Both the position numbers and the translations under genes were made by a program. Below are positions 3,214 through 37,564 of a DNA stretch of 37,564 bases, in pieces. Every line of letters begins with the position of its first letter. Positions within the stretch are counted from its first letter, which is position 1. The notes below the pieces were generated by a model, which saw only the letters and a program-made list of their open reading frames with translations, ran no database searches and was not told where the DNA came from. This DNA comes from a virus (Duplodnaviria; Heunggongvirae; Uroviricota; Caudoviricetes), in the IMG/VR virus record IMGVR_UViG_2695420705_000025. One strand, 5' to 3'.

Positions 3214-3441
3214 ATGATGGCCCGAAATATAAAAATGGCAACGGATGCGCAGAACTGGTTACAGGCGCGCGGGAGTCATGTAAATGAATCATATCTCGGC
3301 GTGGCGCGTCCGATTCTTGAAATCACTTACCCACCGGTGGAACTGGTAAAAAACGCGGTCAGAATTATGGAGCATAAATCCGGAGTTGCCCGTTCTGTAT
3401 GGACGGCCCGTCTTAATGGTTGCCAGATTATCTGGAGATAA
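3214..3441 (+). CDS. kil: Kil host-killing protein (small early protein)
   Basis: 75-aa ORF immediately downstream of B, the position of Mu kil; GAAGGAGAAG Shine-Dalgarno upstream. Confidence 0.7.
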
Positions 3442-11521: not shown

Positions 11522-12097
11522 ATGGACAGGAAAACACGGGGCCGGGCTTCAAAAGTGGATTTATTGCCGGAAAACGTACGTAAAACGCTGCATGAAATGC
11601 TGCGTGATAAAGCGATCCCACAGGCCCGCATTCTGGAAGAAATTAACGCACTGATTGAAGACGCTGGCCTGCCGGATGAGATGAAACTCTCCCGTTCCGG
11701 TCTGAACCGTTACGCGACGAACGTCGAGCAGGTAGGCCATAACCTGCGACAGATGCGTGAAATGACGTCAGCACTGACCGCAGAACTTGGCGACAAGCCA
11801 ATGGGAGAAACCACAAAGCTGATTCTGGAAATGGCCCGCAGCCAGCTTTTTAAGGCCATGATGCGGCAAATCGAAAACCCGGAATCTGACGTGGATATTG
11901 ACCTGCTGAAAAATGCCATGCTGGCGGCACAGCGTCTGGAATCCACGGCAATGTCCAGCCACCGGCGCGAGAAAGAAATCCGCCAGGCATTCGCAGAAGA
12001 AGCGGCAAACGCCGTCAGTGAAGAACTGCGCGGGCAGGATGGCATCAGCGAAGAGCTGGAGCAGCGTATCCGTGATGTGCTGCTGGGTAAGGCATGA
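11522..12097 (+). CDS. Putative terminase small subunit / DNA-binding packaging protein
   Basis: ATG at 11522 preceded by an AGGAGG SD (track ORF from 11507). Lies immediately upstream of the large terminase, the usual small-subunit position. Confidence 0.6.
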   Translation: MDRKTRGRASKVDLLPENVRKTLHEMLRDKAIPQARILEEINALIEDAGLPDEMKLSRSGLNRYATNVEQVGHNLRQMREMTSALTAELGDKPMGETTKLILEMARSQLFKAMMRQIENPESDVDIDLLKNAMLAAQRLESTAMSSHRREKEIRQAFAEEAANAVSEELRGQDGISEELEQRIRDVLLGKA

Positions 12098-20160: not shown

Positions 20161-20708
20161 TGCTGGAAGAAACCGAAGCCGCACTGCTGGCGCGCGTTCG
20201 TGAGTTGTTTGGGGCAACCCTGCGGCAGGTGGAACCCCTTACCGGCACATGGACTAACGAGGATGTGCACCGTCTCTTTCTGGCCCCTCCATCGGTATTT
20301 CTGGCATGGATGGGCTGTGGTGAGGGGCGTACGCGTCGGGAAGTTGAAAGTCGCTGGGCATTTTTTGTCGTGGCGGAGTTGCTGAACGGGGAACCGGTAA
20401 ACCGGCCCGGTATTTATCAGATTGTGGAGCGACTGATTGCCGGTGTTAACGGTCAGACGTTTGGCCCGACCACCGGGATGAGACTGACGCAGGTCAGAAA
20501 TCTTTGTGACGACAACCGTATTAATGCCGGTGTGGTGCTTTACGGCGTTCTGTTCAGTGGCACTACCCCGCTGCCGTCCGTGGTGGACATGGATTCGCTG
20601 GATGATTACGAGCGTCACTGGCAGACCTGGAAATTCCCGGACGAAACCCCGGAATTTGCCGCACATATCAATGTGAATCAGGAAAAGGATCATGATGCTG
20701 AAAATTAA
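20160..20708 (+). CDS. Neck / tail completion protein (182 aa)
   Basis: ORF with start overlapping the upstream stop; position between head and sheath genes. The Mu letter name (K) is uncertain. Confidence 0.6.
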   Translation: MLEETEAALLARVRELFGATLRQVEPLTGTWTNEDVHRLFLAPPSVFLAWMGCGEGRTRREVESRWAFFVVAELLNGEPVNRPGIYQIVERLIAGVNGQTFGPTTGMRLTQVRNLCDDNRINAGVVLYGVLFSGTTPLPSVVDMDSLDDYERHWQTWKFPDETPEFAAHINVNQEKDHDAEN

Positions 20709-20898
20709 ACCCGCAGCGGGAAAAGCCATCCGTGACCCGCTCACGATGAAATTACTGGCTCCGGAGGGAGAAGAAAAGCCCCGTAACAGTTTCTGGATAC
20801 GTCGCCTTGCAGCCGGTGATGTGGTTGAAGTCGGGAGCACCGAAAACACGGCGGATGATACCGACGCTGCGCCGAAAAAACGGAGTAAATCGAAATGA
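20692..20898 (+). CDS. Small hypothetical late protein (68 aa)
   Basis: Short ORF overlapping both neighbours, immediately upstream of the sheath gene. Confidence 0.45.
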
Positions 20899-22382
20899 GC
20901 GATATTTCATTTAACGCGATCCCGTCAGATGTTCGCGTTCCTCTGACGTATATCGAATTTGATAACAGCAATGCCGTCAGCGGAACACCGGCTCCCCGCC
21001 AGCGCGTGCTGATGTTCGGGCAAAGCGGAAGTAAAGCCAGTGCCGCACCGAACGTGCCTGTCCGTATCCGTTCCGGCTCACAGGCCAGTGCGGCGTTTGG
21101 TCAGGGTTCCATGCTGGCACTGATGGCAGATGCATTCCTGAACGCTAACCGCGTGGCGGAGCTGTGGTGTATCCCGCAGGGAAACGGCACCGGTAATGCT
21201 GCTGTCGGTGAAATCTCACTGTCAGGAACGGCAGGCGAAAACGGCTCGCTTGTGACCTATATTGCCGGTCAGCGACTGGCGGTATCCGTCGCAGCAGGTA
21301 CAAAAGGGGCTGCGCTGGCTGACCTGCTGGTTGCCCGAATCAAAGGCCAGCCGGATTTACCGGTGACGGCAGAAGTTCGCGCAGACAGCGGAGATGATGA
21401 CACCTATGCAGATGTGGTTCTGAGTGCAAAATTTACGGGTGCATTATCTGCCGTGGATGTGCGCTGGAACTATTACGCGGGTGAAACCACCCCTTACGGG
21501 ATTATCACGGCATTCAAAGCCGCCTCCGGTAAAAATGGCAACCCGGATATCAGCGCAAGTATCGCGGGAATGGGCGATCTGCAATACAAATATATTGTGA
21601 TGCCCTATACCGATGAACCGAACCTGAATCTGTTACGCACTGAATTGCAGGAACGCTGGGGACCGGTCAATCAGGCTGATGGCTTTGCTGTGACAGTGCT
21701 GTCCGGCACGTATGGGGATATTTCCACGTTTGGTGTCAGTCGTAATGATCATCTGATCTCCTGTATGGGGATTGCCGGTGCACCGGAACCGTCATATCTG
21801 TACGCCGCCACACTGTGTGCCGTTGCCAGCCAGGCGCTTTCCATCGACCCGGCGCGTCCTCTCCAGACGCTGACGTTGCCCGGAAGAATGCCGCCTGCGG
21901 TGGGGGATCGTTTCACCTGGTCAGAACGTAATGCGCTGCTGTTTGACGGCATCTCCACGTTTAACGTGAATGATGGTGGTGAAATGCAGATTGAACGCAT
22001 GATCACGATGTACCGCACAAACAAGTACGGTGACAGTGATCCGTCTTATCTGAACGTGAATACCATCGCCACGCTGAGTTATCTGCGTTATTCACTGCGA
22101 ACCCGCATCACGCAGAAATTCCCGAACTACAAGCTGGCAAGTGATGGCACCCGCTTTGCCACCGGTCAGGCCGTGGTGACGCCATCCGTGATCAAAACGG
22201 AGCTGCTGGCACTGTTTGAAGAATGGGAAAACGCCGGACTGGTCGAGGATTTCGACACGTTCAAAGAGGAGCTGTATGTGGCACGTAACAAGGACGACAA
22301 AGACCGTCTTGATGTGCTTTGCGGCCCGAATCTGATTAACCAGTTCCGCATTTTCGCGGCACAAGTTCAGTTCATTCTGTAA
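20895..22382 (+). CDS. L: Contractile tail sheath protein
   Basis: 495 aa, [26 protein letters not shown]...; recognised as Mu L. Confidence 0.88.
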
Positions 22383-22391
22383 GGAGCATTT

Positions 22392-22748
22392 ATGGCTGGA
22401 AATCAGCGTCAGGGGGTGGCGTTCATCCGTGTCAATGGCATGGAGCTTGAAACGATGGAAGGTGCCTCCTTCACGCCTTCCGGTATCACCCGTGAAGAAG
22501 TGACCGGCTCGCGGGTTTATGGCTGGAAAGGTAAACCACGTGCCGCAAAGCTGGAATGCAAAATTCCGGGCGGTGGTGATATCGGTCTGGATGAAATCAT
22601 CGGCTGGGAAAACATCACGGCAGAGTTTCAGGCAGACACCGGTGAAACCTGGATGATGGCGAATGCCTGGCAGGCAGATGAACCGAAAAACGACGGCGGC
22701 GAAATTTCGCTGGTACTGATGGCAAAACAAAGCAAACGCATTGCATAA
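22392..22748 (+). CDS. M: Tail tube protein
   Basis: 118 aa immediately after the sheath gene with an AAGGAG SD; canonical sheath-tube order. Confidence 0.8.
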   Translation: MAGNQRQGVAFIRVNGMELETMEGASFTPSGITREEVTGSRVYGWKGKPRAAKLECKIPGGGDIGLDEIIGWENITAEFQADTGETWMMANAWQADEPKNDGGEISLVLMAKQSKRIA

Positions 22749-22757
22749 GGGGAAACA

Positions 22758-23192
22758 ATGGACGAAATGAATTTAGGTCCTGAAGCACAGGAACTGCATG
22801 ACAGCATTGTGGCAGAAATTCAGTCCGGCGTGCTGAAACTGAAAGACGGCCTGCCGTTCGGCACCGGTGACGAGACTGAAATGCAGTATGACGTGACGCT
22901 GCGTGAACTGACCGCAGGCGATCTGATTGATGCCCAGGCGGCTGCTGAAAAGCTGGTAATGAGCAAGGAAGGCCCGGTGCTGGTCAGTTCCCCGTCCCGG
23001 ATGGGACTGGAAATGCTGCGCCGACAGATTGCCAGCGTGGGTTGCATCAAAGGCCCGTTATCGCTGGCGCTGATGCGCAAGCTGTCTGTTGATGACTTCC
23101 AGCGTCTGTCGCTGGCTACAGAAATGTACGACATGGCTGTGGCGGCATCGCTGACACAAGAACGGGGGCGAGTGGCTGCGGTGCCGGAATGA
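22758..23192 (+). CDS. Tail assembly chaperone-like protein (gp41 position)
   Basis: 144 aa between the tube and tape measure genes, the usual chaperone position in myoviruses. Confidence 0.6.
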   Translation: MDEMNLGPEAQELHDSIVAEIQSGVLKLKDGLPFGTGDETEMQYDVTLRELTAGDLIDAQAAAEKLVMSKEGPVLVSSPSRMGLEMLRRQIASVGCIKGPLSLALMRKLSVDDFQRLSLATEMYDMAVAASLTQERGRVAAVPE

Positions 23193-23336
23193 TATTGAGA
23201 AAGCGGCGACAGCGATTGGCGTTATTCTGAAAAGTGGCCCGGAATGGGCCTTATCCCTCCCGCTGTCCCGCTTTTTCCGGCACTGCCAGCAGGCTAAAAC
23301 CCTCTCTCAATATCACCGTTAAATCAGGAAATCTCT

Positions 23337-25412
23337 ATGACCGGGAAACGCTTAAAGGCGTCTGTCATTATTGATCTTAATGGCAATCTTTCCCGGCGTT
23401 CCCGCCAGTATTCGAACCAGATAAACGCCCTGTCCCGTAGCGGACAAAGTTCCCTTCGTGCCCTGCGTATGGAGGTTGTGCGCGTTTCTGGTGCCATTGA
23501 CAGAATGGGTTCACTGTCAACCCGTACATTCCGAATGCTGTCAGCCGGGGCGCTGGGTATCGCTGGTGTGGGTTACACCGCCAATAAACTGTTTATTGGT
23601 GCAGCCGCCCAGCGTGAGCAGCAAATTATCGCCATGAACTCGCTGTATCACGGCGATAAGGTCAGAGCGCAGGCCATGATGGCCTGGGCAAAGCAGAACG
23701 CGAAGGACACCACGTGGGGGCTGAGTGGTGTTCTGGATGAGATCCGTTCGTCGAAAGGCTTCGGCATGACGGATGAACAGACGAAACAGTTCATCACCAT
23801 GTTGCAGGATCAGGGGGCCATGCACGGCTGGGATTTACCCACTGCACAGGGTGCCTCACTGCAACTGAAACAGATGTTTGCCCGCCAGCAAATCACGGCG
23901 GCGGATGCCAACCTGCTGACCGGTTACGGTATTAACGTTTACCAGACGCTGGCGGATGCACTGGGTAAAGAAGACGTTAAGGATATCCGCAAACAAGGTG
24001 AAAAAGGCAAGCTGGGTCTGAAATCCATTCTGACGGTATTCAGAACGCTGTCAGAACAGTCAAAAGGTGCACAGGCCAGTGCGATGAACTCCTGGGACGG
24101 GATGTTCGCCCAGATGGAAGCTAACCTGCTTGAATTTCGCATAAAGGTGGCAAACAGCGGCCCCTTTGAAGAAATCAAGAACGAGATGCGCCGGGTGCTT
24201 AACTGGCACGACATGGCGGATAAATCCGGGGAACTTGACGCACTGGCAGAAAACATTGGTCAGAAATTTCTGACCACGTTCAGAACGGTAAAAATCGCGG
24301 CGCAGGAATTATGGCGCTGGCTGAAACCGGGTAAAGATGCGCTGGCATGGGTTGACCAGAATATTGTCAGCCTGAAAAAACTGGCTGCTGTTCTGGTGTC
24401 TGTCTGGCTTGCCAATAAAGCCCTGAGAGCAGGCTGGGCCGTGGCAAAACCCTCATGGCAGGTTGCCAGTTATCCGTTTAAAACCGGGCGTCGTATGTGG
24501 CGCTGGATGCGAAACCGCAAACGTGGGCAGGCAGGTCTGCCGGTCCCGGATGCCATGACGTCTGAGACGCTGTTGCAGGGTATCGGCATTCAGCGTGTGT
24601 TTGTCATCAACTGGCCCCGTGGATTTGGTGGCTACGGGAGTGGCGGCGGTCGTCGCGGACGGAGCGGCGGAAGAATGGCCCCGCTGTTACCCCGCCAGCC
24701 GTTATTGCTGTCCGGGCCACAGCCGCTGGCATTACCTGCACCACGCCCTGTACTGGCATTACCCCCACCCGGCGTACCGGTAACAGCACGGCCTGCACCA
24801 TTACCTTTACCCGGTAAATCCGGTCTTCTGAGCAGGCTTGCAGGCAGTGCTGCCGGGCAACTGGTTACGGGAACGGTCGGAAAGCTGGCTGATGCCGGGC
24901 GTGCTGTTGGCGGGTGGTTTTCCGGTATCGGAAACAAACTTGCAGGCAGTGCGATCGGTCGGGTTGTGACAAAAGGTGCCGGGGCGCTGGGCTGGATGGG
25001 GAAAGGTGCCGGTCGTGTGTTGTCACGTCTGGGTGGCCCAGTAATGGGGGCACTCCAGCTTGCCCCCGTCCTGATGGATGAGCAGGCGTCAACCCATGAA
25101 AAAGCAGGCGCAATTGGCAGTACAGCCGGTGCATGGCTCGGCGGTGCCGTTGGCAGCCTTGCCGGACCGCTGGGTACGGTTGCCGGTGCCACGCTGGGCA
25201 GTGTCGCCGGGGAGTATCTGGGCGGTTTTGTAACCGACCTGTATCAGAAATGGACGGCCCCGGATAAGGAACCGCAGGAACAAAAAGTGAATGCGGAAGC
25301 CTCGCTGCGCGTCGAACTTGCCGAGGGGTTACGTCTGACCAGTTCCCGCGTCACCGAGGACGGTATGGGGCTGAATATTTACGCGGGCGATAACTACATT
25401 ACAGGCTGGTAA
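23337..25412 (+). CDS. Tail tape measure protein
   Basis: 691 aa, the largest tail ORF, with a Gly/Arg/Pro-rich low-complexity core and a Gly-rich C-terminal segment ([13 protein letters not shown]..., [20 protein letters not shown]). Confidence 0.8.
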
Positions 25413-25416
25413 AACC

Positions 25417-26904
25417 ATGTTTGAAGATGCTTTAAATGCCGTTAATGCTGTCCGGGATAAAATCAGCGGTGGTAAGAAAACAACCGGCAAAGGCACGTTT
25501 CGTAACGTGCCGTTTCTCGTCATCGAGGAGCAAAAACAGGCTGGCGGACGTCGCCTGGTTAAACGCGAGTACCCGTTACGTGATACCGGCGGCGTCAATG
25601 ACCTGGGGAAAAAGCTTCGCTCCCGTACATTCAGCGCCTGCATTCTGAACAGCAACGCAGAAACAGCCAGAGATGAAGCGGGTGCGCTGATGGATGCTCT
25701 TGATGCTCCGGGTAGCGGTGAGCTGGTACATCCTGATTTCGGCACTGTGGACGTCATGGTGGATTCATGGGAATGCCGCACTAAAGCGGATGAACTGAAT
25801 TATTACGCGTTCACCGTTACCGTTTATCCGTCGTTGCAGGATACTGCCCCGGACTCAGAGACAGACACCAGTGCAGCCGTACCGGCACAGGCCGTTGCTG
25901 TAACCGGTTCTCTGGGAGATACGCTGTCCTCTGTCTGGCAGACCGTAAAAGATGGCACTGCGGCGGCAACCGCCGTGATGGAAGCTGTAACCGGTGTCAT
26001 CGATGATATCAGTGATGCGGTGGACAATCTGGGGGTTACGCAGACTGTCAGCGGTCTGATGGGATCGCTTTCTGCGATGAAAGGCTCTGTGACCAGCCTG
26101 ATTAACCAGCCTGCCATGCTGGCCTCCTCGCTGATGGGGGCGCTGTCCGGCGTTTCATCGTTATGCGATACCCGGACAGCATTTTCCACATGGAACCGTC
26201 TGGCGCAGCGATTCGAACGTCGCCATGCCGCCACCGCAGGCAGACAGGGGACAATCACAACCTCGTACAACAGTCCGGTTGCAGAAAAAAATATTGCCAC
26301 ACTGAACTACGTCATGCTGGCAGCAGCACAGACATACCGGGCGGAGGCAGCAAGCCAGGCACTGACTGCGGCACTGGATTTCAGTCGCCGGATGGATAAT
26401 GCCGCCCGTGCACCTGTACTGGATGCCCCGTCCACCACAACCGGCACAGCCAGCGGGGCCAGCAGCACATCCGCTACCGTCACACAGGGACAGTTACAGT
26501 TAACTGCCATAACCCCGGACGGCGGCTTTTCACAGGTATCCTTTTCAGACAGTGGTACAGCCACGCCCCCGGTATTTGAAAGTGTGTCCGATATCGGAAA
26601 AACAGCCGCCATGCTGGGGGCAGCGCTGGATACCGTCATTCTGACGGCATCTGAGCAGGGCTTTTCGACAGACAGCGTTCAGCTTACGCAACTGCGTCTG
26701 CTGGTTGTTGCCGACCTGGAAAAACGCGGGCTGCAACTGGCAGGCAGTGAAACGCACCGCCTGCCGGAGACGATGCCTGCAATGGTGGCTCTGTACCGTT
26801 ACACAGGAAACAGCCGGAACTGGCAACGGCTGGCCCGCAGGAACGGTATCAGCAACCCGTTGTTTGTTCCCGGTGGTGTCAGTATTGAGGTGATTAATGA
26901 GTAA
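25417..26904 (+). CDS. N: N protein, DNA circularization protein
   Basis: 495 aa in the Mu N position downstream of the tape measure. Confidence 0.75.
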
Positions 26905-28036
26905 TACCGTCACGCTGCGAACGGATGGCAGGCTTTTTACCGGCTGGACGTCAGTCTCTGTCACCCGCTCCATTGAATCCGTAGCCGGATATTTTGAGCT
27001 GGGGGTGAATGTGCCACCGGGTACAGATTTATCCGGGCTGGCACCGGGGAAGGCGTTCACGCTGGAAATCGACGGGCAGATTGTCTGCACCGGTTATATC
27101 GATTCGCGGCGACGCCAGATGACCGCTGACAGCATGAAAATCACTATCGCCGGACGTGACAAAACGGCTGACCTGATTGACTGTGCTGCCGTTTACAGTG
27201 GCGGACAGTGGAAAAACCGCACACTGGAGCAGATTGCGCGTGACCTGTGCGCTCCTTATGGCGTTACCGTTCGCTGGGAGCTTTCCGATAAGGAAAGTTC
27301 GGCAGCTTTTCCCGGCTTCACGCTGGACCATTCAGAAACCGTTTATGAGGCGCTGGTGCGTGCCTCCCGCGCACGCGGTGTACTGATGACCAGCAATGCC
27401 GCAGGAGAGCTGGTATTCAGCCGGGCTGCCAGCACAGCCACTGATGAGCTGGTTCTCGGAGAAAATCTGCTGACACTGGATTTTGAGGAAGACTTCCGCG
27501 ACCGGTTCAGCGAATACACCGTCAAGGGGTATGCCCGCGCAAACGGTGCTGAGGGTGATGATATTGATGCGAAAAGTATCGTCTCCCGGAAAGGGACCGC
27601 CACTGACAGTGATGTAACCCGTTACAGACCGATGATCATCATTGCTGACAGCAAAATTACGGCGAAGGATGCACAGGCCCGCGCCCTGCGTGAGCAACGC
27701 CGCAGACTGGCAAAATCCATCACCTTTGAGGCTGAAATTGACGGATGGACTCGCAAGGACGGGCAACTCTGGATGCCGAACCTGCTGGTCACTATTGATG
27801 CCTCGAAATATGCCATCAAAACCACGGAATTACTGGTCAGCAAAGTCACCCTGATACTGAATGACCAGGACGGGCTGAAAACCCGCGTCAGCCTTGCACC
27901 ACGCGAAGGCTTTCTGGTGCCGGTTGAAAGCGACCGTAAAAACAGGAAAGGCGGCGACAGTAACGGCGGTATTGATGCGCTGGTTGAAGATTATTATCGC
28001 AGACACCCGGAGAAAACGCCGCCGTGGAAAGAGTAA
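26897..28036 (+). CDS. P: Baseplate hub / tail protein P
   Basis: 379 aa; position and size match Mu P. Confidence 0.75.
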
Positions 28037-28617
28037 ATGATTTCGCCCTGAACCGCCTGCTGACGCCGCTGATGCGTCGTGTGCGCCTGATGCTTGCGCG
28101 CGCTGTTGTTAACGTGATTAACGACGGGCGAAAGGTTCAGAACCTGCAGGTCGGCCTGCTGGATGATGAGGAATCTGATGAAGTGGAGCGCCTGCAAAAT
28201 TACGGGCATTTCAGCGTTCCCCTGCCGGGAGCAGAGGCGCTGATTGCCTGTGTAGGCGCACAACGTGATCAGGGGATTGCCGTTGTGGTGGAAGACCGCC
28301 GCTACCGCCCGACAAATCTTGAACCGGGTGATGCAGGCATTTACCACCACGAGGGGCATCGTATCAGGCTGACAAAGGACGGACGCTGCATCATTACCTG
28401 TAAAACGGTTGAGGTTTACGCTGATGAAAGTATGACCGTTGACACACCCAGAACCACGTTTACCGGCGACGTTGAGATCCAGAAAGGTCTGGGCGTTAAA
28501 GGTAAAAGCCAGTTCGACAGCAATATTACTGCCCCGGATGCCATCATCAATGGCAAATCGACGGATAAGCATATCCACCGTGGCGACAGCGGCGGAACCA
28601 CGGGGCCAATGCAATGA
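28024..28617 (+). CDS. Baseplate central spike protein (gp45-like)
   Basis: 197 aa from a GTG start at 28024 overlapping the P 3' end; position and size match Mu gp45. Confidence 0.7.
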   Translation: MERVNDFALNRLLTPLMRRVRLMLARAVVNVINDGRKVQNLQVGLLDDEESDEVERLQNYGHFSVPLPGAEALIACVGAQRDQGIAVVVEDRRYRPTNLEPGDAGIYHHEGHRIRLTKDGRCIITCKTVEVYADESMTVDTPRTTFTGDVEIQKGLGVKGKSQFDSNITAPDAIINGKSTDKHIHRGDSGGTTGPMQ

Positions 28618-29051
28618 CCGATTTAGCCATTATCTGGACGAACGGACGCGGCGATATTGCACAGGATGGCATTGATATGCTGACCGACGACAGCCTGACA
28701 ACCGATGTGACAATCTCCCTGTTTACAGACCGGCGCGCGCTGGATTCTGACACGCTGCCGGATGGTTCAGATGATCGCCGTGGATGGTGGGGTGACAGTT
28801 ACCGCGACCGCCCCATCGGTTCGCGGTTGTGGCTGTTATCACGTGAAAAAGCCACACCGGATACGCTGGAACGCGCCAGAGGGTATGCCGAAGAGGCGCT
28901 GGAATGGCTGAAAACAGCGGGCCGGGTAAGTGCGATTAACGTCAGAGCGGAACAGTTACATCAGGGCTGGTTATACCTCTACATTGCACTGACATTACCG
29001 GATGGTTCCGTTATTCCTTATGAGTTTAAAGCAGCATTTAACGGGGTTTAA
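28614..29051 (+). CDS. Baseplate wedge protein (gp46-like)
   Basis: 145 aa, ATGA overlap with upstream gene; position in the baseplate module. Confidence 0.7.
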   Translation: MTDLAIIWTNGRGDIAQDGIDMLTDDSLTTDVTISLFTDRRALDSDTLPDGSDDRRGWWGDSYRDRPIGSRLWLLSREKATPDTLERARGYAEEALEWLKTAGRVSAINVRAEQLHQGWLYLYIALTLPDGSVIPYEFKAAFNGV

Positions 29052-30134
29052 ATGGCTTATTCACCACCGACATTATCATCGCTGATTGCCCGTACAGAAC
29101 AGAATATTGAACAGCGCCTGCCGGGTAGCTGGCCTCAGGCCCGTGAAAAAACGCTGAGTGCCATTGCTTATGCTCAGGCGGGCCTTGCTGCCGGTTGTCA
29201 CGAGCATATTTCATGGGTTGGACGGCAGATTATCCCGTCGACAGCAGATGAAGATGAGTTGCTGGAGCACTGCCGGTTCTGGGGCGTGCGCCGCAAACAG
29301 GCGACAGCCGCCAGCGGCCCGCTGACTGTCACCACATCGGCAGCGACCACCATTCCTGCCGGTACACGCTGGCAGCGTGCTGATGGTGTGGTTTACAGCC
29401 TGGCTGATGCCATTGTGATTGACCGTGCAGGAACGACGGAAATTACCGTTACCGCACTGGCTGCCGGTGAAGCAGGAAATACCGGTGAGAATACCCTTTT
29501 AACGTTGATCACCCCGGTTGCCTGTGTTGTTTCCGATGCCATCACTGTAAAAGGGTTTTCCGGTGGGGCTGATATTGAGAGTGCAGCGGAGCTGCTGTCA
29601 CGGCTGGAATATCGTGTCCAGTATCCTCCGTTCGGCGGTAATCAGTTTGATTATGTTCGCTGGGCGCGTGAAGTCAGCGGCGTTACCCGTGCCTGGTGTT
29701 TTCCGACATGGAAAGGCGGTGGCACAGTCGGGGTGACGTTTGTTATGGATAACCGGAGCAATATTTTTCCACAACCGGCAGACGTGGAACGCGTGGCGGA
29801 TTATATCGCCGGTCATACTGACCCGATCACCGGTCTGATTGTCGGACAGCCTGACGGTGTAAATGTCACTGTATTTGCGCCAAAGGCAAAGCCGGTAAAT
29901 CCACGGATTTATATATCACCGAAGACAGCCGAACTGAAACAGGCTATTACCCACGCCATTAATACCATGTTTTTTAATGAGGTGACGCCGGGCGGCGCAC
30001 TTGCCCCCTCCCGTATTATCCGTGCGGTGGCAGGTGTTACCGGTCTGGATGATTTTGAAGTGCGTTTCCCGACAGAGATCCAGCGTTCGGAGAATACGGA
30101 ACTGTTAACACCGGGGACAATTGAATGGCTGTAA
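29052..30134 (+). CDS. Baseplate J-like protein (gp47-like)
   Basis: 360 aa; position and size match the baseplate J family member of Mu. Confidence 0.75.
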   Translation: MAYSPPTLSSLIARTEQNIEQRLPGSWPQAREKTLSAIAYAQAGLAAGCHEHISWVGRQIIPSTADEDELLEHCRFWGVRRKQATAASGPLTVTTSAATTIPAGTRWQRADGVVYSLADAIVIDRAGTTEITVTALAAGEAGNTGENTLLTLITPVACVVSDAITVKGFSGGADIESAAELLSRLEYRVQYPPFGGNQFDYVRWAREVSGVTRAWCFPTWKGGGTVGVTFVMDNRSNIFPQPADVERVADYIAGHTDPITGLIVGQPDGVNVTVFAPKAKPVNPRIYISPKTAELKQAITHAINTMFFNEVTPGGALAPSRIIRAVAGVTGLDDFEVRFPTEIQRSENTELLTPGTIEWL

Positions 30135-30667
30135 CACCCTATCAGACGGCCTTTCTGCAATTACTGCCGTCAGGGCTTGCCTGGAATAAAAGCCCCGACA
30201 GCAAATTATCTGCGCTGGCGCAGGCCATCAGCGACGTGATTGCCACTGCGGCGGATGATGCGCGGCAAATGCTGCGGGAGCGTTTCCCGTCCACATCCCG
30301 CTGGTATCTGGGGGGGTGGGAATCATTTCTGGGGTTGCCGGACTGTACCAGCGAAAACGGCACCCTGTCCGAACGCCAGCGGGCTGCCGCGAATAAAATG
30401 CGTATGACCGGCAATCTGAGTCGGCGCTTTTATGAATGGCTGGCTGCGCAGTACGGTTTTACCGTCAGGCTGACGGATTCCACAGAAGGCCAGTGGGTTA
30501 CGCAGGTCAATATTTACGGTATTAAAAATTATCGCAACGCAACGGTGCTGGATAATGTTCTGACGCCGTTACGTGTTTATGAATCGGGTGCGCTGGAATG
30601 TTTACTGGAGAAATATAAACCCGCGCATCAGATTTATAAATTTGTTTACCATGACGGAGATAACTAA
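30125..30667 (+). CDS. Tail protein gp48-like (baseplate / fibre attachment)
   Basis: 180 aa immediately upstream of the tail fibre gene. Confidence 0.7.
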   Translation: MAVTPYQTAFLQLLPSGLAWNKSPDSKLSALAQAISDVIATAADDARQMLRERFPSTSRWYLGGWESFLGLPDCTSENGTLSERQRAAANKMRMTGNLSRRFYEWLAAQYGFTVRLTDSTEGQWVTQVNIYGIKNYRNATVLDNVLTPLRVYESGALECLLEKYKPAHQIYKFVYHDGDN

Positions 30668-32022
30668 TGTTTTATATTGATAACGACAGCGGCGTAACCG
30701 TCATGCCGCCCGTATCCGCCCAGCGTAGTGCTATCGTTCGCTGGTTTTCAGAAGGTGACGGGAATAATGTTATCACATGGCCCGGCATGGACTGGTTTAA
30801 TATTGTGCAGGCGGAGTTATTAAACACGCTGGAAGAAGCCGGTATTCAACCGGATAAAACAAAATTAAACCAGCTTGCACTATCCATTAAAGCCATTATG
30901 AGCAATAACGCACTGCTGATAAAAAATAACCTCAGCGAAATTAAAACTGCCGGGGCATCAGCACAGCGTACAGCACGTGAAAATCTGGATATTTATGATG
31001 CCAGCCTGAACAAAAAAGGACTCGTTCAGCTAACCAGTGCCACTGACAGCCCCAGTGAAACGCTGGCAGCCACCGCAAAAGCGGTGAAAATTGCGATGGA
31101 TAATGCCAGTGCCCGTCTGGCAAAAGACCGGAACGGAGCAGATATTCCCAATAAGCCGCTGTTTATCCAAAACCTCGGTTTACAGGAAACGGTAAACAAG
31201 GCTGGTAACGCTGTTCAGCGTTCTGGCGATACAATGACCGGAAAACTGAATCTACCACAGACATCTGCATTCGGCGTTGATACCGATAATGCACTGGGTG
31301 GTAATTCCATTACTCTCGGAGATAACGACACTGGTATTAAACAGGGCGGAGACGGTGTCCTTTTATTCTATTCAAATGGACAACTGGCATTTGGGCTTCA
31401 ACCCGCATCTGCTGATTTTTATAAGCGGGTTGCATACATTCCTCAGGGAATAATTCCTGATGGAAGTGGCGCATTTGCAGACCAGTTGAATAATGCCACC
31501 GCGCCTTTTGTTCAGACGCAGTTTGCCTGGAATCCCACTCCTGGTGGTCATTACGTGCCGATAGTTAAGGGCTTGTCCATTCGCAATGGACAGGGCTATC
31601 CCGGCGCGGTCAGCTTTGGTTATTTGCTGACAGAACAGTATGGATTTCCGGTTCCATGTATTCATATGCGTGGCGATGGCGGTAATGATGCTTTATGGCA
31701 GTTTAACCCGAACGATAAATCTTTTATTTCACCGGGTGCTCTTGTTGCGGGTGGCATCATTTATAACACCGATGGAAATATATTTGGCGGGTGTTGGGGT
31801 TCAAATTTAGCTGATTATCTCAATAGCACATATGTAAGAGACATTCGACTTGGTAGCGCAGAATCAATATCAGCATGGCGAGGCCCTGGTTACTGGGATA
31901 CTTCTGGATATGTTCTGACCGCAGCCGGAAACAGCAACACCGATGAATTTATTGATACATTAACCAGAAGGCCTATTCAGAAGTTGATTGGTGGGACATA
32001 TTATAACGTTGTGAGTATTTGA
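30667..32022 (+). CDS. S: Tail fibre protein S (constant Sc part fused to the variable part currently in expressing orientation)
   Basis: 451 aa. The constant N-terminal part runs to the left gix repeat (about 31167); the variable part lies inside the invertible segment. Confidence 0.88.
31167..31203. repeat. gixL, left inverted repeat / Gin recombination site of the G segment
   Basis: CCAAAACCTCGGTTTACAGGAAACGGTAAAC is the near-perfect reverse complement of 34340-34375 (two or three mismatches); lies inside S at the constant/variable junction (encodes LGLQETVN). Confidence 0.85.
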
Positions 32023-32023
32023 C

Positions 32024-32551
32024 ATGATGCATTTAAAAAACATTAAAGCAGGGAACCCCAAAACACCTGAACAATACCAGTTAACCAAAAAAGCTGGAGT
32101 GGTCTGGCTTTATACTGAAGATGGTAAAAACTGGTACGAAGAACAAAAAAACTTTCAACCAGATACTATAAAAATTGCATACGATAAAAATAATGTGATT
32201 GTTACCGTAAGCAAAGATGTTTCAACTATTAACCCGGAAGGTTTAAGTGTTGTTGAAGTATCCGATATTACGGCAAATCGTCGCGCAGACAATAACGGAA
32301 ACTGGATGTTTCTGGATGGTAAAGTAGTAAAGCGGGAATATACAAAACAGGAGCTGCAACAGCAGGCAGAGTTACAAAAAGCCGCTTTGCTTTCCGAAGC
32401 GGAGTCTGTGATTCAACCGCTGGAACGTGCTGTCAGGCTGAATATGGCAACTAATGAGGAACGCGCACGACTGGAGTCATGGGAACGCTACAGTGTTCTG
32501 GTCAGCCGTGTGGATACGGCAAATCCTGAATGGCCACAAAAGCCTGAATAA
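32024..32551 (+). CDS. U: Tail fibre assembly protein U
   Basis: 175 aa directly after S; paralogous to the minus-strand 177-aa ORF (both start [11 protein letters not shown]...). Confidence 0.88.
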
Positions 32552-32556
32552 AAATT

Positions 32557-32576
32557 AAGGCCCGATAGCGGGCCTT
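32557..32576. terminator. Bidirectional hairpin between convergent U and U'
   Basis: AAGGCCCG-ATAG-CGGGCCTT stem-loop in the 28-bp gap between the convergent stop codons. Confidence 0.55.
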
Positions 32577-32579
32577 GTC

Positions 32580-33113
32580 TCATTCTGGTTGTTCCGGGAA
32601 TGTTACAGGAAGAACAGAGGTATCTGTGGCATCAACCTGCTGCATGTATAACATCCAGTTAATGAGTCTTTGCCTGTCTGAATCGCTGATAATTCCCAGC
32701 GCAAGCTGTGTTTGCCAGCACTGCGTTTCCTCTCTGGCCTGTCGCAGCAAAATCTGTTTCTGAATTTCAGCCAGTTGACGTAGTTCTTCATCAGTCCGGG
32801 GGCGTTTCATGACCTTGCCATCCTGAAACACCCAGTCACCGAGAATATCGGCCCGGCGATTCGCTGTCGTGTCGGGTAATTCGACAACGCTCATTCCTTC
32901 CGGGTTAATAGACGACACATCTTTTTCAATATAGCGAATGATACCTCTGTCATCGTAAGCGATTTTTAGTGTGTCTGCCTGAAAGGCTTTTTGTGCCTCA
33001 TACCAGTTCTTACCATCTTCAGCGTAAAGCCAGATAACTCCGTGTTTCTTTGTTAACTCATACTGTTCCAGTGTTTTAGCGTTACCCGCTTTTATGTTCT
33101 TTAAGTGCATCAT
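32580..33113 (-). CDS. U': Tail fibre assembly protein U' (alternative, currently non-expressed orientation)
   Basis: 177 aa on the minus strand, paralogous to U; follows S' on the minus strand. Confidence 0.85.
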   Translation of the reverse strand: MMHLKNIKAGNAKTLEQYELTKKHGVIWLYAEDGKNWYEAQKAFQADTLKIAYDDRGIIRYIEKDVSSINPEGMSVVELPDTTANRRADILGDWVFQDGKVMKRPRTDEELRQLAEIQKQILLRQAREETQCWQTQLALGIISDSDRQRLINWMLYMQQVDATDTSVLPVTFPEQPE

Positions 33114-33114
33114 A

Positions 33115-34362
33115 TTAAACGCTCGCTACATTATACCAGGTGCCATTTATATACTTTTGAACGGGTCTGTAATAAACGCCCGCTATATTATCGGCAGAGT
33201 TGGACCCTGTATCCTGAACATTAATACCAGACAATACATGACCTGACGGGCACTGGAAATTCCATGTTTGCCAGTTGTTCACACCATGATATTGCTGTGA
33301 ACCAAGACGAACATCTTTCACATAGCGGGAATCAAAATTCCCCCAGTTGCTGGGTTGTATCTGACCGTTAACAGCAAATATCACCGAGTTATCTGTATTT
33401 CGCTGACTATAGAAATGCCAGCCTGAATCATCACCAAGCTCTGCAACAGTTGGTCTTGACGAATTTCCCCACAAGCTAAATGATGCATTACGGGCAGCGG
33501 TATTTGCACTTGAAAGTGTGAAGAACTTACTTTCCCCAGCCTGAATACCCTTTAATGATCTTGCTGAACCATTTATAAAGCGGAATACATGCACACCATT
33601 AGCATAAGCATCCAGCACCCCATCACCATTTTGTTTAAACCCGGTATCGTTATCTCCTAAAACTATTGAATTTCCACCCAGGGCATTAGCCGTTCCAATC
33701 CCCAGATTTCCGCTAAAAATGGCATTAATACCGAGTATTGAGTGAGAACAATAAAACCCTCGCCCATTGTTAAAATCCAGAATGGCTTGTGCGTTCGTGC
33801 TTTCTGTCGCGGGATTAGTTGCTCCCCACTTATATGTTGTTTGACCGACAGTATAATCCTGAGTTGGAACAATAACCGTTAGCCCTTCTTCAGCAGAAAC
33901 CCGCACAGGAAAAGCCCTGCCTTCAACGTAAAAAACGCTGCATACATCATCTTCTTTAAGGCTTGTTACAATGGAATGGATTGCGCGCTCATTAGTCTGA
34001 TACGTCGAAAAATAACCTGCCGCATATGAACCACGATCAGTCCAGCCACCAGGCATTACCATTCCATTGAATTCGCAGTTATTCATTGCGTAATCACTAC
34101 TGGCACATGTGGTCGTTATAATCACTCTGGAAGCCAGCTCGCCAGTGCCGCCTGTGGAACGCCGGAAAATAACTGGATACCACTTTCCACCAATTGCATT
34201 AGACGGCGCATTAAATGCGTACTGCCGCATTCCTTTTTTCTTATCCACCTCGCCTTTGCTGTAAACATTAATGTTACTCAGGAAGCGATCCTTATCAGGA
34301 ATATCCGCGCCGTTCTGGTTTTTCTGTAATGCGCCAGAAGCCTGATTTACCGTTTCCTGCAA
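33115..34362 (-). CDS. S': Sv', alternative variable tail fibre domain; startless ORF that opens at gixR
   Basis: Minus-strand ORF whose first codons (LQETVN) are encoded by the gix repeat; the in-frame codon upstream is TAA and the apparent start is TTG. So it has no start of its own and is expressed only after inversion fuses it to Sc. Shares the motif [22 protein letters not shown] with S. Confidence 0.85.
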   Translation of the reverse strand: MQETVNQASGALQKNQNGADIPDKDRFLSNINVYSKGEVDKKKGMRQYAFNAPSNAIGGKWYPVIFRRSTGGTGELASRVIITTTCASSDYAMNNCEFNGMVMPGGWTDRGSYAAGYFSTYQTNERAIHSIVTSLKEDDVCSVFYVEGRAFPVRVSAEEGLTVIVPTQDYTVGQTTYKWGATNPATESTNAQAILDFNNGRGFYCSHSILGINAIFSGNLGIGTANALGGNSIVLGDNDTGFKQNGDGVLDAYANGVHVFRFINGSARSLKGIQAGESKFFTLSSANTAARNASFSLWGNSSRPTVAELGDDSGWHFYSQRNTDNSVIFAVNGQIQPSNWGNFDSRYVKDVRLGSQQYHGVNNWQTWNFQCPSGHVLSGINVQDTGSNSADNIAGVYYRPVQKYINGTWYNVASV

Positions 34363-34375
34363 ACCGAGGTTTTAG
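34340..34375. repeat. gixR, right inverted repeat / Gin recombination site of the G segment
   Basis: Reverse complement matches gixL; located 59 bp upstream of the gin start. Confidence 0.85.
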
Positions 34376-34433
34376 ATAATGGCTGTTTCCGGCCTGCATG
34401 GCATGATTTGCGCTTTTAAACGGGAGATCCAGA

Positions 34434-35027
34434 GTGCTGATTGGCTATGTAAGGGTATCAACAAATGACCAGAATACAGACCTGCAACGAAACGCTCTTG
34501 TTTGTGCAGGATGTGAACAAATATTTGAAGATAAATTAAGCGGAACAAGGACAGACAGACCTGGATTAAAACGCGCTTTAAAGCGCCTTCAAAAAGGTGA
34601 CACACTTGTTGTCTGGAAACTGGATCGCCTCGGGCGAAGCATGAAACATTTGATTTCTCTCGTAGGGGAATTACGAGAGCGAGGGATTAATTTTCGCAGT
34701 CTTACTGACAGTATTGATACGTCATCTCCAATGGGGCGTTTTTTCTTCCACGTTATGGGTGCCCTGGCTGAGATGGAACGAGAACTAATCATCGAGCGAA
34801 CGATGGCTGGACTTGCTGCCGCCAGAAATAAAGGCCGTATTGGTGGGCGACCACCTAAACTAACCAAAGCGGAATGGGAGCAGGCCGGGCGTTTATTAGC
34901 ACAAGGAATCCCCCGCAAGCAGGTTGCATTGATCTACGATGTGGCCCTGTCAACTCTGTATAAAAAACACCCCGCGAAACGAACGCATATAGAAAACGAC
35001 GATCGAATCAATCAAATCGATCGGTAA
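34434..35027 (+). CDS. gin: Gin serine recombinase (DNA invertase), copy 1
   Basis: 197 aa from a GTG start, MLIGYVRVSTNDQNTDLQRNALVCAGCEQIF... with catalytic serine in VRVST; recognised as Mu Gin. Confidence 0.92.
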   Translation: MLIGYVRVSTNDQNTDLQRNALVCAGCEQIFEDKLSGTRTDRPGLKRALKRLQKGDTLVVWKLDRLGRSMKHLISLVGELRERGINFRSLTDSIDTSSPMGRFFFHVMGALAEMERELIIERTMAGLAAARNKGRIGGRPPKLTKAEWEQAGRLLAQGIPRKQVALIYDVALSTLYKKHPAKRTHIENDDRINQIDR

Positions 35028-35035
35028 TACAGATC
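35001..35035. promoter_or_regulatory. Cluster of three GATC (Dam) sites, mom upstream regulatory region, copy 1
   Basis: GATC at 35001, 35019 and 35032, overlapping the gin 3' end and upstream of com. Mu mom is known to be controlled by Dam methylation and OxyR binding at three upstream GATC sites. Confidence 0.6.
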
Positions 35036-35109
35036 GATTATGTCTCAATAACCACACTCAACCCATGATGTTTTTTAAGATAGTGGCGAATTGATGCAAA
35101 GGAGGTGAG

Positions 35110-35280
35110 ATGAAATCAATTCGCTGTAAAAACTGCAACAAACTGTTATTTAAGGCGGATTCCTTTGATCACATTGAAATCAGGTGTCCGCGTTGCAAAC
35201 GTCACATCATAATGCTGAATGCCTGCGAGCATCCCATGGAGAAACATTGTGGGAAAAGAGAAAAAATCACGATCTCCTAA
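35110..35280 (+). CDS. com: Com-like translational activator, C-terminally altered copy created by the duplication junction (56 aa)
   Basis: Identical to com through codon 54 (zinc-finger cysteines intact), then reads IS-stop across the junction at 35271/35272 instead of HSDETVRY-stop. No mom gene follows this copy. Confidence 0.6.
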   Translation: MKSIRCKNCNKLLFKADSFDHIEIRCPRCKRHIIMLNACEHPMEKHCGKREKITIS

Positions 35281-35982
35281 AACTATTGAATTTCCACCCA
35301 GGGCATTAGCCGTTCCAATCCCCAGATTTCCGCTAAAAATGGCATTAATACCGAGTATTGAGTGAGAACAATAAAACCCTCGCCCATTGTTAAAATCCAG
35401 AATGGCTTGTGCGTTCGTGCTTTCTGTCGCGGGATTAGTTGCTCCCCACTTATATGTTGTTTGACCGACAGTATAATCCTGAGTTGGAACAATAACCGTT
35501 AGCCCTTCTTCAGCAGAAACCCGCACAGGAAAAGCCCTGCCTTCAACGTAAAAAACGCTGCATACATCATCTTCTTTAAGGCTTGTTACAATGGAATGGA
35601 TTGCGCGCTCATTAGTCTGATACGTCGAAAAATAACCTGCCGCATATGAACCACGATCAGTCCAGCCACCAGGCATTACCATTCCATTGAATTCGCAGTT
35701 ATTCATTGCGTAATCACTACTGGCACATGTGGTCGTTATAATCACTCTGGAAGCCAGCTCGCCAGTGCCGCCTGTGGAACGCCGGAAAATAACTGGATAC
35801 CACTTTCCACCAATTGCATTAGACGGCGCATTAAATGCGTACTGCCGCATTCCTTTTTTCTTATCCACCTCGCCTTTGCTGTAAACATTAATGTTACTCA
35901 GGAAGCGATCCTTATCAGGAATATCCGCGCCGTTCTGGTTTTTCTGTAATGCGCCAGAAGCCTGATTTACCGTTTCCTGCAA
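35272..35982 (-). pseudogene. Truncated second copy of the Sv' 5' region (N-terminal 237 codons)
   Basis: Exact copy of 33652-34362; the reading frame continues into junction-derived sequence (track ORF 35146-35982). Confidence 0.8.
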
Positions 35983-35995
35983 ACCGAGGTTTTAG
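35960..35995. repeat. Third gix site (duplicate of gixR), in direct orientation to gixR and inverted relative to gixL
   Basis: Identical to 34340-34375 at an offset of 1620 bp. Confidence 0.85.
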
Positions 35996-36053
35996 ATAAT
36001 GGCTGTTTCCGGCCTGCATGGCATGATTTGCGCTTTTAAACGGGAGATCCAGA

Positions 36054-36647
36054 GTGCTGATTGGCTATGTAAGGGTATCAACAAATGACCAGAATACAGA
36101 CCTGCAACGAAACGCTCTTGTTTGTGCAGGATGTGAACAAATATTTGAAGATAAATTAAGCGGAACAAGGACAGACAGACCTGGATTAAAACGCGCTTTA
36201 AAGCGCCTTCAAAAAGGTGACACACTTGTTGTCTGGAAACTGGATCGCCTCGGGCGAAGCATGAAACATTTGATTTCTCTCGTAGGGGAATTACGAGAGC
36301 GAGGGATTAATTTTCGCAGTCTTACTGACAGTATTGATACGTCATCTCCAATGGGGCGTTTTTTCTTCCACGTTATGGGTGCCCTGGCTGAGATGGAACG
36401 AGAACTAATCATCGAGCGAACGATGGCTGGACTTGCTGCCGCCAGAAATAAAGGCCGTATTGGTGGGCGACCACCTAAACTAACCAAAGCGGAATGGGAG
36501 CAGGCCGGGCGTTTATTAGCACAAGGAATCCCCCGCAAGCAGGTTGCATTGATCTACGATGTGGCCCTGTCAACTCTGTATAAAAAACACCCCGCGAAAC
36601 GAACGCATATAGAAAACGACGATCGAATCAATCAAATCGATCGGTAA
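36054..36647 (+). CDS. gin: Gin serine recombinase (DNA invertase), copy 2
   Basis: Identical to the 34434-35027 copy. Confidence 0.92.
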   Translation: MLIGYVRVSTNDQNTDLQRNALVCAGCEQIFEDKLSGTRTDRPGLKRALKRLQKGDTLVVWKLDRLGRSMKHLISLVGELRERGINFRSLTDSIDTSSPMGRFFFHVMGALAEMERELIIERTMAGLAAARNKGRIGGRPPKLTKAEWEQAGRLLAQGIPRKQVALIYDVALSTLYKKHPAKRTHIENDDRINQIDR

Positions 36648-36655
36648 TACAGATC
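36621..36655. promoter_or_regulatory. Cluster of three GATC (Dam) sites, mom upstream regulatory region, copy 2 (the one actually upstream of com-mom)
   Basis: Same sequence as 35001-35035 at an offset of 1620 bp. Confidence 0.6.
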
Positions 36656-36729
36656 GATTATGTCTCAATAACCACACTCAACCCATGATGTTTTTTAAGA
36701 TAGTGGCGAATTGATGCAAAGGAGGTGAG

Positions 36730-36918
36730 ATGAAATCAATTCGCTGTAAAAACTGCAACAAACTGTTATTTAAGGCGGATTCCTTTGATCACATTGAAAT
36801 CAGGTGTCCGCGTTGCAAACGTCACATCATAATGCTGAATGCCTGCGAGCATCCCATGGAGAAACATTGTGGGAAAAGAGAAAAAATCACGCATTCTGAC
36901 GAAACCGTGCGTTATTGA
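36730..36918 (+). CDS. com: Com, zinc-finger translational activator of mom
   Basis: 62 aa, [62 protein letters not shown], with CxxC...CxxC zinc finger; overlaps the mom start. Confidence 0.9.
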
Positions 36919-37564
36919 GTATGAAGGCCAGATTGTTGGCTATGGTTCAAAGGAGCTGCGCGTTGAAACCATATCTTGCTGGCTGGCCCGCACAATTATT
37001 CAGACAAAGCACTATTCCCGCCGTTTTGTGAATAACTCTTACCTCCACCTGGGAGTATTCAGCGGACGCGATCTGGTTGGCGTTCTCCAGTGGGGATATG
37101 CCCTTAACCCCAACTCAGGTCGTCGTGTCGTGCTTGAAACGGATAACCGGGGCTATATGGAGTTGAACCGCATGTGGCTACACGACGACATGCCCCGCAA
37201 CTCTGAATCACGGGCCATCAGTTATGCACTGAAAACCATAAGGTTACTGTATCCGTCAGTGGAGTGGGTTCAGTCTTTTGCAGACGAACGCTGCGGACGT
37301 GCTGGCGTTGTGTATCAGGCGTCAAATTTTGATTTTATTGGCAGCCATGAAAGCACGTTCTACGAGCTGGATGGTGAGTGGTATCACGAGATAACGATGA
37401 ACGCGATTAAACGCGGTGGACAACGAGGCGTGTATTTACGGGCTAATAAAGAGCGTGCCGTGGTGCACAAATTTAATCAGTATCGCTACATCAGGTTCCT
37501 GAACAAGCGAGCAAGGAAGCGACTAAATACCAAGCTATTCAAGGTTCAGCCATACCCTAAGTGA
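36839..37564 (+). CDS. mom: Mom DNA modification enzyme (adenine carbamoylmethylation, anti-restriction)
   Basis: 241-aa ORF starting inside com and ending at the last base of the window; recognised as Mu Mom. The exact start codon may be downstream of 36839. Confidence 0.88.

Follow-up and report, generated by a model that had tools for sequence, protein, structure and literature searches.

The window analysed here, a stretch of 37,564 nucleotides from a Mu-type phage (IMGVR_UViG_2695420705_000025), contains a 1,620-bp block twice in tandem, and on balance this duplication is probably an artefact of assembly or finishing, with the second copy most likely absent from the DNA of the organism. 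Self-comparison and a repeat search showed that repeat copy 1 (33652-35271) and repeat copy 2 (35272-36891), both read on the plus strand, are identical over 1,620 bp with 0 mismatches and are joined head to tail, as the original prediction had held. An exact repeat of this length cannot have a chance origin. The prediction had allowed up to 1 bp of microhomology at the join; base comparison showed that identity stops at both edges of the unit and that the junction at 35271|35272 has 0 bp of microhomology. At this junction, com codon 54 (...AAAATCACG) is joined to the interior of Sv' (ATCTCCTAAAAC...). One breakpoint lies in the com/mom overlap, between com codons 54 and 55 and at codon 8 of the 231-aa form of mom (Mu 35929|35930), and the other lies inside Sv', at codon 237 of its 415-codon ORF, in agreement with the predicted placement in the com-mom overlap and the S' coding region. 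A scan of the whole window found no N characters, and a repeat scan of the whole window found no further long repeats or oddities that would hint at wider misassembly.

The duplicated unit comprises Sv' codons 1-237, gixR, gin, Pmom, com codons 1-54, and the mom start. Before it on the plus strand lie the S tail-fibre gene in the G(+) orientation (Sc+Sv, 30667-32022, 451 aa), whose protein is identical in JHRP01000021.1, CP024297.1, and CYCB01000036.1, and the gene for U, the G(+)-state tail-fibre assembly protein (32024-32551, PF02413). The G(-)-state assembly protein U' (32580-33113, PF02413) and the full 415-codon Sv' segment (33115-34362) are encoded on the minus strand, and G inversion fuses Sv' to Sc, giving the 586-aa S'. 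The segment is flanked by two inverted 26-bp sites that differ at 2 positions, namely gixL (31163-31188, plus strand, TTATCCAAAACCTCGGTTTACAGGAA, core TC at 31175-31176) and the first copy of gixR (34354-34379, minus strand, reverse complement TTATCTAAAACCTCGGTTTGCAGGAA), the latter located by a gix site scan. Only these two sites score well in the single-copy parent described below, where the next best gix-like site has 10 mismatches. The adjacent gin copy 1 (34434-35027, plus strand) encodes a serine DNA invertase of 197 aa with 97.6% DNA identity to Mu; the Resolvase and HTH_7 domains (PF00239 and PF02796) were assigned on the identical gene of the parent. A Fis-dependent enhancer is presumably present in the 5' part of gin by homology with Mu, from which its position is taken as established. 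Simulated inversion produces the 586-aa S' followed by U' and thereby swaps S/U for S'/U', and sister loci in the opposite G orientation indeed encode a 586-aa fibre, with inversion breakpoints that map to the gix sites, including gixL. With the invertase gene beside the invertible segment, the inverted pair of gix sites, and the exchange of fibre part and chaperone on inversion, the region matches a Mu-type Gin/gix module.

On both sides of the junction, the duplicated region holds altered and additional genes. The late promoter Pmom of copy 1 (35035-35101, plus strand) was placed by homology to Mu 35693-35759 through coordinate transfer (offset 658). It is followed by com' (35110-35280, plus strand), a chimeric 56-aa ORF consisting of Com residues 1-54 plus Ile-Ser, as judged from the ORF list and Mu coordinate transfer; within com' are the mom RBS (35238-35241) and GTG start (35249), and then just 7 mom codons. 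On the minus strand, a truncated Sv' fragment (35146-35982; ORF list and simulated inversion) consists of the first 237 codons and 41 antisense-com codons. The second gixR (35974-35999, minus strand) is a direct repeat of the first and is inverted relative to gixL. Next on the plus strand come gin copy 2 (36054-36647), listed as an intact 197-aa ORF, the intact com gene (36730-36918, 62 aa, PF10122), and the sole full copy of mom (36839-37564, PF25680), whose stop codon forms the last bases of the window. The predicted gene content thus stands: two full gin genes, an extra gix site, an altered com, and a single mom after the second copy. A scan of the unit for promoters and terminators gave weak consensus matches only, such as a terminator-like hairpin at 35834-35851 in the interval between com' and gin copy 2.

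An exact single-copy parent of this region is publicly available. JHRP01000021.1, from the E. coli assembly GCA_001265535.1, carries one copy of the block in a prophage that adjoins pqiABC and that is in the G(+) orientation like the window. Compared with the window, it has 0 mismatches in the 14,605 bp that lead up to the junction and in the 2,293 bp beyond, so that the base-for-base identity covers window positions 20667-37564; repeat copy 1 corresponds to positions 12986-14605 of this contig, and window positions 35272-37564 correspond to 12986-15278. The second copy is the sole difference within the 16.9 kb compared. Two further contigs of the same prophage, CYBY01000018.1 and CYCB01000036.1, match the window with 0 mismatches and at 99.9-100%, respectively, and overall at least three assemblies contain the parent in single-copy form. 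A look-up with the tape-measure gene led to a 99.98%-identical G(-) relative other than the exact parent, and the Ner gene is too widespread to point to a parent contig. The single-copy arrangement expected from Mu was confirmed in Mu, D108, SfMu, and every sister prophage examined.

The junction itself has no match elsewhere. A 300-bp probe did not detect it in 5,426 complete E. coli genomes, 50,697 phage records, or 72,556 plasmids, nor did a 30-mer search in IMG/VR, GTDB species representatives, or JGI metagenomes. The four possible chimeric products (56, 278, 240, and 48 aa) gave no exact-sequence match in a gene index. The absence may merely reflect a source outside the indexed collections. 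Nevertheless, the public availability of the exact parent, together with the absence of the junction from all collections searched, argues for an artefact, as do the 100% identity of the copies, the 0 bp of microhomology, and the arbitrary intragenic positions of both breakpoints.

The location of the block provides a further argument because it straddles gixR, which is a proven trouble spot in assemblies of the same prophage. Draft contigs stop near this site: CYCB01000036.1 ends 61 bp past gixR and SOOH01000003.1 163 bp past it, and the end of JICA01000029.1 is also close to gixR. In addition, CYBY01000018.1 (also recorded as IMGVR_UViG_2690316161_000025) and CYCB01000036.1 contain scaffold misjoins, each marked by a single N, that coincide exactly with gixL or gixR, the boundaries of the G segment. 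Through one of these two misjoins, the gin-com-mom region falsely appears as a tandem duplication of 8,120 bp, which is present in IMG/VR too. The sister prophages are found in both G orientations, and therefore the heterogeneity that confuses assemblers exists within this lineage.

A plausible route to the window's junction is suggested by the duplication, its exact parent, a junction unmatched in the collections searched, and the break point at gixR. A 1,620-bp overlap across gixR could have been left unmerged and its two sequence ends simply concatenated, whether these belonged to overlapping contigs or to one circular contig rotated at a later stage. This would probably be triggered by the presence of both G(+) and G(-) molecules in cultures of Mu-type lysogens, since reads in conflict at the gix sites could make an assembly break off or join wrongly. 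With one end continuing into com and the other beginning within Sv', their end-to-end joining would produce an exact tandem repeat with arbitrary breakpoints and a microhomology of 0. Exact identity, arbitrary breakpoints, and a position at a known assembly break point are what is found. This reading is also favoured by a documented class of artefact in which the ends of long-read contigs overlap near-identically: left untrimmed, such ends give identical or near-identical direct repeats whose boundaries are arbitrary and whose junctions bear no biological signature (the Circlator paper, PMC4699355). The overlaps are normally terminal in the contig, whereas the internal position of the window's repeat needs joining or rotation without trimming. 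Moreover, a pure de Bruijn contig cannot hold a junction that reads do not support, and the artefact would thus need an overlap-based, scaffolding, finishing, or rotation step.

Some observations stand against an artefact. Although the two misjoined contigs represent the same prophage as the window, their misjoins arise at the boundary of the G segment, each with a single N located precisely at gixL or gixR, whereas the window's junction is free of N and lies off gix, with gixR located 702 bp from the edge of the unit on the G side and 892 bp from the edge on the gin side. An overlap of 1.6 kb is also short compared to typical contig-end overlaps of long-read assemblies. If the duplication is nevertheless an artefact, the result has practical value in that the record should be corrected, and it adds to the evidence, here from the two N-joined misjoins, that Mu-type invertible segments lead to faulty assemblies and, through these, to inflated gene counts in phage databases.

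The main alternative is a real and very recent tandem duplication private to one isolate, which we regard as a serious possibility, albeit a rather doubtful one. It could have arisen by illegitimate (homology-independent) joining of sister molecules after breaks in the com/mom overlap and in Sv', and a single-colony bottleneck would have fixed it. The single new junction and the head-to-tail arrangement are what a genuine spontaneous tandem duplication should show, the unit is internally coherent with both gin ORFs intact, and exact identity is expected if the event is only a few generations old. The junction is clean and free of N, and the 0 mismatches to an independent assembly over 16.9 kb indicate a high consensus quality; an explicit two-copy record also implies long-range information, which could have truly resolved a duplication. 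Against this stands the lack of an independent sighting of the junction in any collection, compared to a single-copy parent in at least three assemblies. The position across gixR is as an assembly break predicts, whereas by simple arithmetic a 1,620-bp block placed at random in the parent has a chance of only about 9% of including one of the two gix sites. Spontaneous bacterial duplications may have zero microhomology, although typically they do not.

The predicted consequences of a real duplication also count against it, being a non-functional fibre state and a genome at the headful limit. The phage would have two gin genes, and hence two enhancers, and a third gix site. Inversion between gixL and the first gixR would still give the normal 586-aa S' followed by U'. 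When inversion between gixL and the second gixR was simulated, it gave a 449-aa fibre made of 408 aa of S' and 41 junk residues with no chaperone gene downstream, which would be a dead end. According to the work of Kanaar, van de Putte, and Cozzarelli, wild-type Gin reportedly makes no deletion between directly repeated gix sites, and collapse of the duplication would therefore be expected only by RecA recombination between the 1,620-bp repeats. A literature search on Gin with directly repeated gix sites returned structural papers only. The prophage would grow from 37,157 to 38,777 bp, which is about the headful limit of Mu, whose slack is about 1.5-2 kb (PMC5557969, PMC7350765). Together with roughly 50-100 bp of host DNA at the left end, it would reach or exceed the headful, and many virions would then be expected to lack the right end. 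A real duplication would thus probably be deleterious to the phage and short-lived. It would nonetheless offer a convenient natural test of the Mu headful limit, of the failure of Gin to delete at direct gix repeats, and of the choice among three gix sites. The sequence by itself leaves both a very recent event and an artefact standing. The duplication is either an assembly error, which is most likely, or a very recent, harmful one-off event, and it is ordinary in both cases; its biological weight is little, and even a real duplication would not amount to a new type of system.

An edit at the level of the file, in which the block was pasted twice during manual curation, record editing, or construction of the window, appears improbable. 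The length of 1,620 equals 27 × 60, a whole number of 60-column lines, and apart from the duplication the window is base-for-base identical to a public contig over 20667-37564. However, no 60-, 70-, or 80-column boundary coincides with the start of the block, whether in the coordinates of the record counted from the Mu left end or in those of JHRP01000021.1, and neither does a 60-column boundary in window coordinates. About 1 in 60 lengths is divisible by 60 by chance, and this proportion rises if further line widths are considered. Outside the block, the window shows no sign of editing.

It is very unlikely that the duplication is real and represents a natural intermediate between a two-site and a multi-site invertible segment. 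Multi-site inversion systems include Min of plasmid p15B and the R64 shufflon, which resemble the two-copy window in having more than two crossover sites per invertase beside C-terminal cassettes of tail-fibre or pilus genes. In contrast, each of their sites fronts a usable coding segment, whereas the extra site of the window fronts the truncated Sv' that leads to the 449-aa dead end without a chaperone; the window is thus not a multi-site inversion system of the Min or shufflon type. If the intermediate reading were true, one step would have raised the crossover sites to three and doubled both the invertase gene and the enhancer, providing a living example of how Min- or shufflon-type systems could start and a natural substrate for studying how Gin picks between two gixR sites. 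An origin through Gin or a different site-specific recombinase, using quasi-gix sites in an unequal exchange of sister molecules, can be rejected with hardly any doubt as far as the sequence can show, in spite of the presence of gin and gixR in the unit and of quasi-site use in the related Cin system. The 26-mers centred on the breakpoints have 15-23 mismatches to gix, which corresponds to the background distribution (mode about 20). Serine invertases require the two partner sites to have the same 2-bp core, whereas the junction shares 0 bp. The junction is therefore not a Gin product, as had been anticipated from its position away from gix.

Except for the repeated block, the region corresponds closely to that of Mu. 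The G-segment module (gixL, S/U, U'/S', gixR, and gin) followed by com-mom has the same gene order and sites, and the DNA is 97-99% identical in Sc, in gixR-gin-com, and in mom. In Mu and in every relative examined, gixR, gin, and com are each present once, whereas the 1,620-bp block occurs twice in the window. The window also differs from Mu in that its Sv/U is a different allele, with U about 79% identical and Sv giving no megablast match, and in the length of Gin, which is 197 aa in the window and 193 aa in Mu.

The window covers a Mu-like transposable prophage from precisely the ATG of ner (position 1) to the stop codon of mom (37564); among named phages, the closest to it are Mu, D108, SfMu, and several Mu-like phages of Yersinia and Escherichia. 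Features transferred from two Mu records onto the window sequence place S at 30667-32022, gixL at 31163-31188, U at 32024-32551, U′ at 32580-33113 (minus strand), Sv′ at 33115-34362 (minus strand), the first gixR at 34354-34379, the first gin at 34434-35027, Pmom at about 35035-35101, and com′ at 35110-35280. Beyond the junction at 35271/35272, part of Sv′ (35272-35982), gixR (35974-35999), and gin (36054-36647) occur for a second time, followed by an intact com (36730-36918) and mom (36839-37564); this map bears out the gene content that the original prediction assigned to the repeated unit. In its basic layout the module follows the classical Mu arrangement of G inversion, gin, and com-mom, with its testable defining features present. 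Identity to Mu is 97-99% for Sc, gin, com, and mom, whereas the variable parts of Sv and U belong to another allele (U is ~79% identical in DNA, and Sv has no megablast match) and Gin has 197 aa instead of 193, differing at its C-terminal end. The 5′ half of this Sv′ allele (35272-35421) is ~99% identical to tail-fibre genes of non-mobilizable plasmids of ~92-110 kb from E. coli and E. albertii. A multi-site inversion system was rejected because the extra gix site fronts a truncated cassette.

Self-comparison of the window showed that 33652-35271 and 35272-36891 match over 1,620 bp with 0 mismatches, as predicted for two identical head-to-tail copies. The identity does not extend one base further on either side, giving a junction (…GAGAAAAAATCACG joined to ATCTCCTAAAAC…) with zero microhomology. 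A repeat finder returned the same spacing, a repeat search detected no other long repeats or tandem arrays in the 37.5-kb window, and no N occurs in the window. On the right, the break lies at the equivalent of Mu 35929/35930, between com codons 54 and 55 and at codon 8 of mom in its 231-aa form; on the left, it falls at codon 237 of Sv′, an ORF of 415 codons. As a result, Com from the first copy lacks the final 8 residues (residues 1-54 are followed by Ile-Ser), and mom is reduced there to a stub of 7 codons.

When the S and U′ proteins were looked up by exact sequence, this prophage turned up in several NCBI assemblies. JHRP01000021.1 is free of mismatches to window 20667-35271 (14,605 bp) and resumes at its position 12986 for window 35272-37564, again with 0 mismatches, so that the duplication is the sole difference within the 16.9 kb compared. 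CYBY01000018.1 likewise shows 0 mismatches and CYCB01000036.1 is 99.9-100% identical; each of the three has one gixR-gin-com unit, barring an N-joined artefact in CYBY01000018.1. The junction is absent from 5,426 complete E. coli genomes, 50,697 phage records, 72,556 plasmids, IMG/VR, GTDB species representatives, and JGI metagenome contigs, and none of its four gene-caller products (56, 278, 240, and 48 aa) is in the gene index.

Most likely the duplication is not a real feature, and an assembly or finishing artefact has a somewhat better than even chance of being the source of the second copy. Comparison of six loci (L005, L007, L010, L012, L013, and L025) with three others (L003, L008, and L009) showed that sister prophages, 99.1-100% identical, are deposited in both orientations of the invertible G segment with breakpoints at the gix sites (window 31163-34379), which indicates that Gin is active in the lineage and that cultures will be mixed. 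Draft contigs end at the equivalents of window 34440 in CYCB01000036.1 (61 bp past gixR) and 34542 in SOOH01000003.1 (163 bp past gixR), and that of JICA01000029.1 also ends near gixR. In CYBY01000018.1 (7170-20534), host pqiA′-pqiB-pqiC plus mom-com-gin-G seem to be duplicated in tandem over 8,120 bp, but the two copies are joined by a single N at 11946, exactly at gixL, which makes this a scaffolding artefact; the same structure has entered IMG/VR as IMGVR_UViG_2690316161_000025. CYCB01000036.1 provides another scaffold misjoin at gix in this lineage: a single N at 3223 links gixR to the middle of the tape-measure gene, creating a false 520-aa hybrid ORF. In the window, gixR lies within the repeat block, which reaches 702 bp beyond it on the G side and 892 bp on the gin side; a random 1,620-bp block would cover either of the two gix sites with a chance of ~9%. 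The artefact is favoured by this position across a proven assembly break point and by the artefacts that sister assemblies show in this region. Overlap-based assemblies are also documented to leave near-identical overlaps at contig ends (PMC4699355), which points the same way.

A real, recent, and private duplication is the less probable but still substantial alternative. The junction is clean and without N, a de Bruijn contig cannot invent one, and two written-out copies imply long-range data able to resolve a true duplication. Against it, and in favour of an artefact, the junction was never sighted independently while the exact parent, the window minus the second copy, recurs; the absence from the collections counts only weakly against a real event. 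The perfect match of the copies and the lack of microhomology are compatible with either reading. If the duplication were real, simulated inversion between gixL and the first gixR gives a normal 586-aa S′ followed by U′, the fibre length called in G(−) sister loci, and inversion with the second gixR gives 449 aa (408 aa of S′ and 41 residues from antisense com). The latter product lacks the C-terminal 178 residues and a downstream chaperone gene and is presumably non-functional. The two gixR sites are direct repeats; Gin depends on Fis and the enhancer and is inversion-specific, and the wild-type enzyme is not expected to delete between direct gix repeats. The extra copy would then be removable solely through homologous recombination of the two 1,620-bp copies. 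Beyond the window, the prophage continues for 1,098 bp to the left of ner and for 115 bp to the right of mom, which gives 37,157 bp for the parent and 38,777 bp for the duplicated form. Mu packages by headful and takes in host DNA at both ends, roughly 50-100 bp at the left and ~1.5-2 kb at the right (PMC5557969; PMC7350765), and the 36,717-bp Mu genome yields an estimate of ~38.3-38.8 kb per head. The duplicated prophage with its left host DNA would equal or exceed a headful, leaving many particles without the right end; such a duplication, if real, would be tolerable in a resting prophage and harmful to the phage. Neither of these two leading explanations, artefact or real duplication, implies anything new.

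A file-level edit is an improbable third option, suggested by 1,620 being 27 × 60, but the block is out of phase with line boundaries in each coordinate frame tested. Least probable of all, to a vanishing degree, is a recombinase product: strand exchange by serine invertases takes place at an identical 2-bp core, whereas no base is shared at the junction, and, when each 26-mer of the de-duplicated parent was scored against gix, only the two true sites matched (0 and 2 mismatches; next best 10) while the 26-mers centred on both breakpoints had 15-23 mismatches, the background level, so that a Gin origin was rejected, in agreement with the original prediction.

Mu-like regions were also observed in other records. 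CP024297.1 (167,764 bp; L002, L005, and L006) carries two copies of the tail/G/gin/mom region in opposite G orientations, (+) and (−), with IS66-family elements after each, and its several split genes (e.g., gp43 and gp44) suggest frameshift errors or decay. In JBKIAA010000004.1 (L016, 10230-14494), a Mu-like prophage has a large internal deletion, with a truncated transposase A (250 aa) directly followed by a U fragment, U′, a partial Sv′, gin, com, and mom. CP001396.1 (L015, 9241-20228) fuses Mu c-ner-A′ to lambda genes (exo/bet/gam/kil/cIII and rexAB), includes an aminoglycoside phosphotransferase gene, and looks like an engineered Mu-lambda construct of a laboratory strain.
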